Source: Candidatus Omnitrophota bacterium | Lineage (GTDB): Bacteria > Omnitrophota > Gorgyraeia > Zapsychrales > Fredricksoniimonadaceae | Direction: 5' to 3' | Assembly (NCBI GenBank): GCA_030650275.1 | Contig: JAUSEK010000023.1 | Span: 199,729-263,728 of the forward strand | DNA: 64,000 nt | Shown here: one piece after another, positions 20,658-23,600 of the stretch | Position numbering within the stretch: the stretch's first letter is position 1 | Layout: every line of letters begins with the position of its first letter | Program-made: the position numbers and the translations under genes | Notes under the pieces: model-generated | Told to the model about the DNA's origin: nothing | Seen by the model: the letters and a program-made list of their open reading frames with translations, nothing else | Database searches by the model: none

Positions 20658-23600
20658 ATGTTTAAAAAATTCCTAAACCTTGTCCTGATTCTTACCTTTG
20701 TGGCCTCTTCGTTGGCGCCTGCCCGTTCTTATGCCGCACCCCTATCTTTACCTGAGCCGGGAACAATGGTCAATCTAAGCCCTGCCTTTGAGTCGGTCTT
20801 GATCAAAGGCCTTAAAGTCCATCCCGAGAATCCTTTTGCCTTTGATTTCATTGTAGATACCGGCCACACGGGATTGTCCGTAGAGACGAGGCATGCCTCG
20901 TCTCTACACAACGAATCCATGAAATTGATCAAATATTTCCTTACTGCCTTAACCATCCCCGAAAAAGACCTCTGGGTCAACCTGTCTCCCTATGAGAAGG
21001 ACAGGATGATCGCAGAGAACTTAGGCAAAACCCAAATGGGCCAGGACATGCTGGCCCAGGACTATATCCTCAAACAACTGACCGCATCTCTGATCTATCC
21101 TGAACGTGACTTAGGCAAGGCCTTCTGGGACAAGGTCTACCAAAAAGCCCAACAACTCTACGGCACTACTGAAATACCCGTCAACACCTTTAACAAGGTC
21201 TGGATCGTTGCAGACAAGGCCGATATCTTTGAACGCGGCAATGTGGCCTACATTGTAGGAGCACATCTTAAGGTGATGCTGGAGGAGGACTACACGGCTT
21301 TAAACAAGAACCAACAGGGATTGTCACCCCCGAAATCTTCTATCGGGGGTCCAGAGCATGGGACATCTTCTGGATTCCCGACAAAAACATTCGGGAATGA
21401 CAGCCATGCGATGGCCTCCCAGATCGTCCGTGAGGTCATCCTTCCCTCCATCGAACAAGAAGTCAACCAGGGCAAGAACTTTGCCCCTCTTCGCCAGATG
21501 TTCTACTCCATGATCCTGGCTTCCTGGTACAAGATGGCCCTTAAAGACACCATCCTAACCCAACTCTACGGTAACCAATCAAAGACCAAGGTCGGCATCA
21601 ACGCCAACAACCCCAATGACAAGGACAAGATTTTCGAACAATACCTGAAGGCCTACAAGAAGGGTGTGTTCAACTATATTAAGGAAGATGCTTCGGCTGC
21701 GCTCAGCACAGGTGCTTCGACTCCATCGTCCCGACAATCGTCGGGACTCGGTCGCTCAGCACAGGTGCCCAGGAAGTATTTTTCGGGGGGGCTGCAGATG
21801 GGCGTTGACCAAGCCATGCGGGTCGTGCACGACCTGCCTTTGGGGACATCATTACGTACAGGAAACACCTTTGATGTCGCGATCTTGGCCAATACTAAAT
21901 TGGCTGGTTCCGACGGGGCGATGGTGGCCAGGATACCAGTTAATTATACTAATACAAGAACACGTCAAGCAGTAGCTGGTTTGAAACTAACAGAGCTGGG
22001 CGTTGGCTATACACGTTTATCCAACGGAAATCCGACACCAGAGATGATTTTTACCGTGACCACTCCAAGCGGTCGAACAATTGAATTAACCGGAGCATCA
22101 CCGGCAGGAGAGTCTGAAGGAGTAAGAGCAGCCCTCTTTATGCTAGATGGGTCAGCAGCTGAAGACCTTACACTTATCAGAGATGGAGTTCTCAAAGCCG
22201 TTTACGGGGATATCTCTAGAGAAGATGCGGAAAATAGGATGCTAAAAGACATTTTTGGATTAGACAGGCAGCAAGCCCTTGTCCAGATGAAGGCTGACTT
22301 AAAAGGAAAAAATATTAAAGTCGCCCTTTGGATCGCTGAAAAAGTAATCCTTCCAAAGCTTAAAGACGCCATTGAATCAGGGAGGGTTGATCCAGCCATA
22401 AGATATCGCATGGATGACACTCAAAACAAAAGTATTGATGACTTTCTTATTAATCTCGACATTGAACTTTTTGGTCGTGAAGGATACAAGGGGGATCAAT
22501 TTTTAGCCCTTAGTGGAGGCAATGTAACTGCTTTGAGTAGGGTTGGGTACAGATTAGTAGCTACTTTAAACGGTGTTTCCAATGAAGAAGTTTTATCTCA
22601 TGGTTATAACCCAGATACAGGAGAAGTTGATCCTCATCAGGAGTTTGGCATCGTTCATCCCATGCCTGTTTTAATCGAAGGCGCCGCTCATGGAGGCTGG
22701 CTAACTGATTTTCAAGAGTTTATGTATTTAATGATGCTTAATGAACGAGAGAGAGCAATGAAAGGATTAGCTCCGAAGTTTGAAAGTCTTCTTAACAAAA
22801 TACAAGCAGTGACAGTGGCACTAACCGATATATTGAAGAAACAGGGAGAGTCCGTCGGTGTGGGTAGCGAAGCGGCCTTTATGTTAAGAAACGCAAATAG
22901 CAATTTAGATCCGATTCAATATCTTTTAGATGCGGCTCGAAAGAGTGGATTAGTAGTAGGAGAAGATTATGGTTTAAGCTTTGATTGGGCCACCAGTGAA
23001 ATTTATCACACCACTGCAGATGGATGGCCTGTGACCGGGTATTATCTATCACTTGAAGGCCGATTAGGAAAACTGCCTGAGATTATTATTCCTGGAGGAA
23101 CTGCGGAAGGTCAAGTGCGAACTCTGGGCCAATTGATAACAGTTCAGGGTAAAAAATATGCTGTATTATCGACGATAAATATGTTTGATTGGATTAAATA
23201 TTTAATTACAAGAACAAACAACCCTCTTCCCTTGGCTACACTGGAAGATATATTTGCTCAGTTTGATATCCAAGGAACCAGAATGTTGACAGGACTTTTA
23301 TATGAACTGAAAAGAACATCCGGATTTCCGTTTAGTTTTCAAAATAGTAATGGTGTAACGCAGGTCATGGATGACATGTGGACAACCCGTCGAGATATCA
23401 TGAGAGCTGCGATCAAGGGGACCCCTCTAGGAGAACCGTTAGTTATTGGAGAGGGGAGAGATCAAGAAGTATTAAATTTTCCTCAGGATACGTTCGACGG
23501 GGGGTTGGTAAAGCTCAATCAGGTTGGGCCGATAAAGTGGTTTATGCAAGCGGCCGCAGAGTTACGGGCACGAGGCCGTGATGTTGTTGATTCTCATAGG

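Follow-up and report, generated by a model that had tools for sequence, protein, structure and literature searches.

Three paralogous genes and two perfect palindromes

The stretch analysed here, referred to as the window throughout, comprises 64,000 nucleotides of contig JAUSEK010000023.1 of a Candidatus Omnitrophota bacterium (assembly GCA_030650275.1, forward-strand positions 199,729 to 263,728). It contains three paralogous open reading frames (ORFs), two of which carry a perfect 28-bp palindrome in the same loop of their N-terminal domain. As detailed below, these palindromes are very probably double-foot repetitive extragenic palindromes (REPs), a type tied to subclass 2.4 of the RayT transposases (TnpA_REP, HUH-Y1), lying in frame in a tolerant loop of one protein family.

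ORF and domain searches placed the first host gene, paralog 1, at 20658–25322 on the plus strand. It encodes 1554 residues and is composed of an N-terminal hydrophobic helix, an N-terminal domain (N-domain) of ~400 residues, enolase-like and histidine-phosphatase (dPGM-like) parts and a conserved C-terminal GGIDxN module. Paralog 2 (30849–33440, plus strand; 863 residues from its ATG) consists of the N-domain, a receiver-like domain and a C-terminal GGIDxN module. Paralog 3 (60467–60838, plus strand), recognised by ORF comparison, is truncated by a stop codon after 123 residues of the N-domain. What is left of its C-terminal module (GFVPVIINIQPMTDLREFLGLN) follows in another frame at 60840–60968, and the gene looks like a pseudogene or deletion derivative. 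The N-domain is thus the part common to all three ORFs and the GGIDxN module is shared by paralogs 1 and 2; their middle parts differ. In other family members this swappable middle is of the NUDIX, methyltransferase or HEAT type, and the overall layout looks like a cargo-carrying architecture. More than 1360 homologues of the N-domain were retrieved, and each one with a named source came from Candidatus Omnitrophota. A fold search with the N-domain model against the PDB returned no significant match.

Both palindromes lie in loop 1 of the N-domain, between the conserved motifs FDFIxDxG and KLIKYFL. The AlphaFold model of the paralog 2 N-domain (predicted local distance difference test score, pLDDT, of 78) places the palindrome peptide in a loop (residues 67–74) and in the first turn of the following helix (residues 75–94). 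The palindrome of paralog 1 spans 20880–20907 (GTAGAGACGAGGCATGCCTCGTCTCTAC in full, variant AGGCATGCCT) and encodes VETRHASSL(H), and that of paralog 2 spans 31056–31083 (GTAGAGACGCAGCATGCTGCGTCTCTAC in full, variant CAGCATGCTG) and encodes VETQHAASL(Q), the whole peptides being VETRHASSLH and VETQHAASLQ. Neither is assigned a strand. The copy at 20880–20907 reads as a GTAG foot, a 10-bp stem plus centre, and a CTAC foot; each 28-mer comprises 14 complementary pairs, with the stem sitting directly on the feet. They are the longest perfect palindromes of the window, where 100 dinucleotide-preserving shuffles led us to expect none of 28 bp by chance, and the window holds no copies other than these two. 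Among the three reading frames through the palindrome, two are free of stops (VET..SL and RD..VST) and one contains TAG; only the open frames were observed.

An earlier note, made from the letters of this stretch alone, had reported two perfect palindromes with exactly paired differences, and its coordinates, self-complementarity and in-frame peptides were all verified. The 28-mers differ at positions 10–11 (AG vs CA) and 18–19 (CT vs TG), each change being mirrored by its exact complement. Structure prediction for the mRNA, one of the checks it had proposed, yielded for each 28-mer a stem of 12 bp and a 4-nt loop, with a fold energy of about −22 kcal/mol (z = −5.3 and −5.6). Its statement that both palindromes occupy the same codon position is accurate for the right-hand boundary, where the palindrome is followed in equal register by two nucleotides and A/G-A-C GAA TC (xES MKLIKYF). 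It fails on the left, where paralog 1 retains four native codons (TGLS) that are missing from paralog 2. The proposed extension of the symmetry into the flanks (GGATTGTCC...ACAACGAATCC) came down to GGATT/AATCC, unpaired in the predicted fold. Both parts are codons common in the family (G-L-S and E-S, of which E-S also occurs in palindrome-free members), and we regard the match as coincidental.

A different hairpin had been noted in the same loop of paralog 3, and it is indeed present at 60690–60710 on the plus strand. It reads CCCTCCCC-CTTGT-GGGGAGGG, has an 8-bp stem and lacks GTAG/CTAC feet; its fold energy is not exceptional given its composition. Peptides akin to this region occur in homologues, e.g. 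in P0050 (SLPHRGEGKGGG).

We also considered an intrinsic terminator or a known structured RNA. Neither fits: no T-run follows either palindrome on its 3′ side, and an Rfam search of the whole window returned a tmRNA and two tRNAs only, without a match to the palindromes. Full-text literature searches with the half-site strings retrieved primer noise only.

Paralog 2 carries a further REP-type element in loop 2. The segment 31492–31548 (no strand assigned) lies in frame and reads GTAG-GGGCGATG-CTTGT-CATCGCCC-GCAAGAA-GGGCGAAT-ACAAG-ATTCGCCC-CTAC. It is an inverted, head-to-head dimer of the canonical long GTAG REP type, similar in form to a REPIN, and complementary changes separate its two units. 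It folds at −42.5 kcal/mol (z = −9.9) and corresponds to residues 214–234, a low-confidence loop of the AlphaFold model.

The palindromes belong to a dispersed family of covarying repeats

We scanned contigs representing one genome per species with the pattern GTAGAGACG-N8-12-CGTCTCTAC and obtained at least 120 loci (denoted by L numbers). The groups among the matches listed include Bacteroidota, Nostocales and other Cyanobacteria, Chloroflexota, Spirochaetes, Geobacter, Acidobacteria, Zixibacteria, Omnitrophota and others. The same pattern was found at no fewer than 120 loci in contigs of IMG/VR. The inner 10–11 nucleotides, which the pattern leaves unconstrained, are very diverse (TTGCATGCAA, CAAAATTTTG, CACGGCCGTG, CGATTAATCG and more) and still self-complementary. 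Whole 28-mers recur as well; TTGCATGCAA, for example, is common to the Omnitrophota locus L143 and to loci of Trichormus and Desulfuromonas.

The earlier note had suggested testing covariation statistically on more members. We did so with 98 copies from many organisms, on the five inner pairs that the pattern had not fixed, and 97% of the cells pair compared with 83% after shuffling. The covariation score was 0.39 against 0.11 for shuffled data (none of 500 shuffles reached 0.39), and sliding the partners out of register gave at most 0.07. All four Watson-Crick pair types were seen at pairs 10–12. The signal is therefore real, and it extends across the repeat family. The selection on a hairpin that the note had proposed is partly borne out: a constraint on the hairpin or palindrome rather than on the peptide does exist, but it belongs to the dispersed repeats and not to the genes. 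The paired AG/CT versus CA/TG difference between the two paralogs is best read as variation among members of the repeat family and not compensatory evolution of a gene signal.

Towards the centre the symmetry relaxes. The central pairs are 80–89% complementary, and 66 of the 92 genome copies with an N10 interior are symmetric to the very centre; about a quarter of the genome copies have an odd centre (N11). The N10 copies from the viral collection are perfect in 47 of 133 cases, and many have non-palindromic 4-nt centres. Such odd or non-palindromic centres indicate that the general form is a stem plus a small loop.

The genome copies favour gene ends. For half of them (50%), an ORF of at least 100 codons ends no more than 40 nt upstream, compared with 9% for random positions, and stop-free spans of at least 200 codons hold 27% of the copies compared with 76% of random positions. 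The ORF maps of L003, L050 and L075 are consistent with this placement.

At eight Nostocales loci (L010, L018, L025, L036, L037, L088, L102 and L116) the palindrome sits inside a larger conserved element, GAAATTAAATATGCGTTA.CCAGAACCCTT[palindrome]ATTC.TTTTC.CCAGATGTCTAA, whose inner stem varies among copies. This element may be one of the small dispersed repeats (SDRs) that Elhai and coworkers reportedly described in 2008 from Nostoc, which are said to be mobile, 21–27 nt long and present in heterocystous cyanobacteria within larger conserved contexts. Short tandem repeats of 7–12 nt (L045, L081, L104, L003) or tandem duplications of one arm (L024, L031, L064, L088, L110) flank some of the palindromes, which suggests slippage or replication errors at the hairpin.

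RayT transposase genes adjoin the repeats in other genomes

RAYT queries were taken from a published alignment and used in tblastn searches, followed by a second round with the matches as queries. RayT-like (Y1) genes were found at 8 of the 120 sampled genome loci, in close association with the palindrome. At L022 the gene lies between two identical palindromes; at L104, L053 and L001 a palindrome lies just upstream of it, and at L087 one lies 115 nt downstream. At the remaining loci a palindrome lies in frame within the RayT-like gene itself (L020, 1893–1920; L081, 1250–1277; L112, 5209–5236). The best family matches of these genes are NCBIfam NF047646 (REP-associated tyrosine transposase) and Pfam Y1_Tnp, mostly under the curated cut-offs, though as the sole or best matches. 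Database homologues bear the Joint Genome Institute (JGI) name 'REP element-mobilizing transposase RayT', and the RayT genes adjoining sampled copies have NHxH, WQ and YIxNNP motifs. The 120 loci sampled from the viral collection contained no RayT gene.

The translated repeat recurs within the transposases. The peptide VETHGRASL, which is the translation of GTAGAGACGCACGGCCGTGCGTCTCTAC, stands between the HUH and Tyr motifs in 98 of the 120 RayT homologues listed (P0121–P0240). In a RayT clade centred on Bacteroidales, tandem left-arm copies in degenerate form (VETHGH, VGTHDR) often stand ahead of the in-frame VETHGRASL. The near-universality of an in-frame cognate REP in that clade is striking and consistent with Quentin et al. 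2018.

Loop 1 in homologous genes of Omnitrophota

We then compared 80 metagenomic loci that had been gathered by protein homology and not by the palindrome. In most homologues loop 1 is plain (e.g. GD-SQLSNDALK-DES), and a minority have peptides of translated hairpin repeats; loop 1 is repeat-derived in roughly one fifth to two fifths of the sampled members. The 28-mer AGGCATGCCT of paralog 1 recurs identically in loop 1 of L121 and L179, in other registers than in paralog 1, so that it occupies three registers overall. Another variant, CCATTAATGG, is present in loop 1 of nine loci in three registers, and TTGCATGCAA in loop 1 of L143. Loop 1 of L162 holds GTACGGACACAAAATTTTGTGTCCGTAC (GTACGGACAC.. 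in short), and that of L137 holds two adjacent palindromes. Canonical REPs occupy loop 1 of L129, L134 and L136, L321 has yet another double-foot REP there (GTAGGGAACGGTCGCGACCGTTCCCTAC, GTAGGGAACGG.. in short), and still other hairpin elements use the same site, which holds at least eight unrelated element types.

Copies also occur away from loop 1. L179 has a second copy between two Bat-like genes, where the TAG of the palindrome is the stop codon of the upstream ORF. L162 carries its variant twice within one gene, and loop 3 of L321 holds the CCATTAATGG variant in the other open frame (RRDAINGVST). The elements are therefore dispersed in related Omnitrophota contigs.

The earlier note had named unpaired substitutions in homologues as the observation that would speak against its proposal. 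They do occur, in intact genes, with two mismatches in L141, four in L322 (P0064) and nine in L125; the first palindrome of L137 has a decayed foot, and its gene is likewise intact. A perfect palindrome that we had predicted for P0064 from its peptide proved wrong, the DNA being this decayed copy.

In a neighbor-joining tree, bearers of the palindrome are scattered among non-bearers. Pairs of bearers are 97–100% identical within the 28-mer and 43–87% identical in most neighbouring 30-nt windows. This peak of identity is limited to the 28-mer, and it is therefore the 28-mer that is copied or homogenised as a unit. Longer tracts of gene conversion between paralogs were considered and not seen, identity being at background in most windows beside the 28-mer.

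The repeat-derived peptides IPAKAGIL and VETPFMASL were also encountered at the extreme N-terminus or in the signal region of family proteins (5′ ends of the family genes in L137 and L186; residue 27 of P0078), so REP-type elements also lie at or just upstream of start codons.

Comparison with known REP systems

The closest counterpart is the subclass 2.4 of TnpA_REP (group 4 of Bertels) described by Quentin, Siguier, Chandler and Fichant 2018 (BMC Genomics 19:475, PMC6006769). Its transposases have the motifs NH[IFV]H, WQ and YIxNNP, are abundant in Cyanobacteria and Bacteroidetes and are scattered in various other phyla. The associated REPs are of a canonical long type, with three G-C pairs at the bottom of the stem, and of a double-foot type with 5′ GT[AG]G and 3′ C[TC]AC; REPs were also found inserted in frame within tnpA_REP itself (PMC6006769). 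The 28-mers of the window resemble the double-foot type in that their GTAG and CTAC feet sit directly on a long perfect stem. Canonical long REPs co-occur with them (31492–31548), and the insertion is in frame in coding sequence, as in subclass 2.4. Unlike in those reports, the window contains no tnpA_REP, the REPs are concentrated in the loops of one large family rather than in tnpA_REP or intergenic DNA, and neither Omnitrophota nor these host genes are among those described.

A broader relationship exists to the GTAG REPs of Di Nocera, De Gregorio and Rocco 2013 (BMC Genomics 14:522, PMC3733652), which have stems of 5–13 bp and short loops, lie mostly outside genes near the 3′ ends of ORFs, and fall into subfamilies told apart by complementary changes in the stem. 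Their TAG can serve as a stop codon, they form head-to-head dimers, and intragenic copies occur, sometimes twice per gene; these are most numerous in Opitutus terrae (of the PVC group, Planctomycetes-Verrucomicrobia-Chlamydiae) and lie in varied genes, notably of replication and repair (PMC3733652). TAG as a stop (L179), complementary subfamilies, dimers and intragenic copies are all found here too. In the GTAG REPs, however, the GTAG is unpaired and stands at one end, whereas here it is paired with CTAC, which puts the tag on both strands, and the intragenic cases known from that study differ from the single hyper-decorated family seen here. With their GTAG paired, the 28-mers count as members of this superfamily in a wider sense only. 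Their exact sequence is absent from the supplement of Di Nocera 2013.

REPINs (Bertels and Rainey 2011, PLoS Genet 7:e1002132, PMC3116915) are two inverted REPs that form a long hairpin, presumed to be the unit mobilised by RAYT; they were reported from Proteobacteria, as extragenic elements. Their form, an inverted doublet with a spacer, fits 31492–31548, while the 28-mers are unlike REPINs in being single symmetric units. As summarised in PMC3184786 and PMC3733652, the Rickettsia palindromic elements (RPEs; Ogata et al. 2000) are selfish, inserted in frame at permissive sites where they add a peptide segment, ~105–146 bp long and Rickettsia-specific; according to the same summaries, the short RPE-4 and RPE-6 are CGTC-type REPs. 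The 28-mers share only the in-frame lifestyle with RPEs, differing in length (28 bp), sequence and host.

Alternative explanations

Several observations weigh against the interpretation of the 28-mers as REPs inserted in a tolerant loop. No RayT or other Y1 transposase gene was found in the window, neither among its 30 ORFs by Pfam nor by tblastn, and a search of 550 kb of related contigs from Omnitrophota (L121–L200) likewise yielded none. The paralog 2 variant CAGCATGCTG had no other occurrence in the sampled loci. The native loop is replaced (27 nt by 30 nt, in one register) and not simply lengthened by 28 bp, which is what the survival of in-frame products would require. Apart from a T at position −1 and an A at position +1, seen in about half of the copies, we saw no target duplication or clear target motif. 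The copies of the window are intragenic, and nearly all of those in related Omnitrophota contigs are so as well, unlike classical REPs, most of which are found outside genes. Of the 19 double-foot palindromes in 614 kb around family genes, 18 fall within family ORFs and 1 outside, in the surrounding 350 kb; this bias is not obviously explained by simple tolerance. Beyond these points, the flanks of the copies showed no further complementarity.

The alternative that survives best derives both palindromes from a single REP-derived one in loop 1 that predated the paralog split and was inherited vertically, AG/CT having become CA/TG in place by compensatory or hairpin-templated substitution. We consider this unlikely, even though the right boundary has an equal register in both paralogs and in many homologues, all members of one subclade (L123, L124, L125, L162 and L165) are bearers, with diverged or decayed versions, and paired changes are known to arise by hairpin-templated correction. 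Variant and register do not go together: AGGCATGCCT appears in three registers, and CCATTAATGG in three plus loop 3 in another frame. Identical 28-mers are shared between paralogs whose adjacent codons differ synonymously, the bearers are scattered in the tree, and further copies are intergenic or occupy a second place within one gene. For the copies of the window, we prefer a reading as two variants that were taken from a REP pool, or homogenised against it, over that of one ancestral hairpin that evolved in place.

A second alternative accepts the elements as REPs and gives the site a role of its own. The loops of this signal-sequence-bearing family, loop 1 above all, might be preferred sites of landing or retention for RayT-type REPs and not just tolerant ones, with cassette-like diversification of exposed loops, or the hairpin ~70 codons into the mRNA might have been co-opted, e.g. 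for a translational pause in membrane targeting. The 18-to-1 placement, the number of element types in the same loop (at least eight) and the perfect conservation of 28-mers amid diverged flanks make this tenable, and we give it a slim chance.

That the hairpin is specific to these genes, an mRNA or DNA structure at about codon 70 that regulates them as, e.g., a translational pause once the signal sequence has emerged or a protein-binding site, appears very improbable. The fold is stable (−22 kcal/mol), it is positioned ~70 codons after an N-terminal hydrophobic helix, and REP-type palindromes are enriched in the family ORFs over neighbouring DNA, all of which would suit such a structure. Most family members, however, close relatives included, have no hairpin there, and four decayed copies reside in intact genes; by this presence and absence and this decay the proposal is already largely refuted. 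It also sits poorly with the use of the same loop by at least eight unrelated element types, with the presence of the same palindromes in loops 2 and 3 as well as between genes and in unrelated phyla, and with the lack of a T-run or an Rfam match.

We hold a de novo origin, by inverted duplication or template switching of the native loop and independent of any repeat family, to be less probable still. The same 9-bp outer stem, and even whole 28-mers (e.g. TTGCATGCAA in L143, Trichormus and Desulfuromonas), are found in unrelated genomes and contexts, and the linkage to RayT likewise speaks against it. A match between GACGCC of the native loop and the left arm of the CCATTAATGG variant would fit this origin, as would the near-equal length of the replaced loop (27 vs 30 nt) and the arm duplications beside some copies (L064, L088 and L110); the microhomology, though, was spotted post hoc and is expected by chance in ~1% of cases.

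Finally, a recognition palindrome in double-stranded DNA (a restriction-modification, recombinase or dimeric binding site), hinted at by the resemblance of GAGACG/CGTCTC to the BsmBI/Esp3I site and by the many N10 genome copies that are symmetric to the centre, is scarcely credible given the N11 copies, the frequently imperfect centres of the viral-collection copies, and the gene-end placement and RayT linkage that point to REPs.

Other repeats and neighbouring genes

The loops of the paralogs hold other repeats as well. In loop 3 of paralog 2, the hairpin ATTCCCGC-GAAG-GCGGGAAT (31770–31789, plus strand) lies in frame, encodes VIPAKAGIQ and falls into a second low-confidence loop of the AlphaFold model (residues 299–317); this element type is also found in loop 1 of other family members. 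Loop 2 of paralog 1 carries an 85-bp two-hairpin repeat in frame (21318–21402, plus strand). Repeat comparison revealed an intergenic copy of this element after paralog 2 (33889–33972, plus strand), and thus the repeats of this genome occupy both intergenic DNA and the loops of the family. The element reads GGATTGTCACCCCCGA..TCGGGGG..GGATTCCCGACA..TCGGGAATGACA and resembles repeats of the MITE kind (miniature transposable elements with inverted repeats); its translations FPTKTFGNDS and SSPNALVGDP recur in homologues. Also in paralog 1, a hairpin (GTCCCGACAATCGTCGGGAC, 21728–21747) is bracketed by 16-nt direct repeats (CGCTCAGCACAGGTGC, 21700–21715 and 21753–21768), which look like the target-site duplication of a small in-frame insert.

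Perfect hairpins with a 12-bp stem and a 5-nt loop were seen in two neighbouring genes, at 25605–25633 in a Bro-N gene (25426–26256) that just follows paralog 1 and at 61337–61365 in an ORF6N gene (61117–61656) that just follows paralog 3. Both lie ~60–75 codons from the start of the gene; comparison of the Bro-N and ORF6N proteins with each other revealed no detectable sequence similarity. The tmRNA gene adjoins smpB (10301–10708, minus strand, and 9734–10297, plus strand). The rest of the window is chromosomal housekeeping (ExbB/TonB, EF-P, AccB, ZnuABC, thiE and others), and from these ordinary surroundings we place the paralogs in the core genome and not in an island.

Discussion

REPs of this type are dispersed, multi-copy DNA; they differ in the inner stem from copy to copy and retain complementarity. 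What E. coli TnpA_REP recognises in single-stranded DNA is the GTAG foot together with the hairpin (Messing et al. 2012 and Ton-Hoang et al. 2012, as summarised in PMC6006769). By analogy, the single-stranded hairpin with its GTAG foot is likely the transposase target here, so that only foldable copies would be propagated or homogenised; a dependence of propagation on recognition of hairpin and foot would amount to selection on foldability. We infer that a RayT of subclass 2.4 acts or acted in this genome. The copies themselves lie in loop 1, in frame, within a protein family that is multi-copy and tolerates insertions, where two stop-free frames and the replacement of a native loop of near-equal length would let the protein survive; insertions would probably persist only in frame and in permissive loops. 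The copies may have reached the loop shared by both paralogs through repeated insertion, or a single old insertion may have been held uniform through conversion with the REP pool of the genome. Double-foot and intragenic REPs were already known; the unusual part is the concentration of REPs in the loops of this one family.

What looked like textbook compensatory substitutions in two paralogs is, on this account, the signature of a selfish repeat and not a regulatory structure, which removes a false lead. Where no more than two or three sequences show covariation, dispersed repeats are the first thing to check for. The peptides VET..SL, RD..VST, VIPAKAGIQ and others will enter alignments, domain calls and structure predictions of such genomes as contaminants. 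For the organism and its relatives, our data extend double-foot and canonical REPs of the subclass 2.4 type to Candidatus Omnitrophota and to a new host family, one large family of extremely REP-decorated proteins that carry REPs, REP dimers and other mini-hairpins in three loops.

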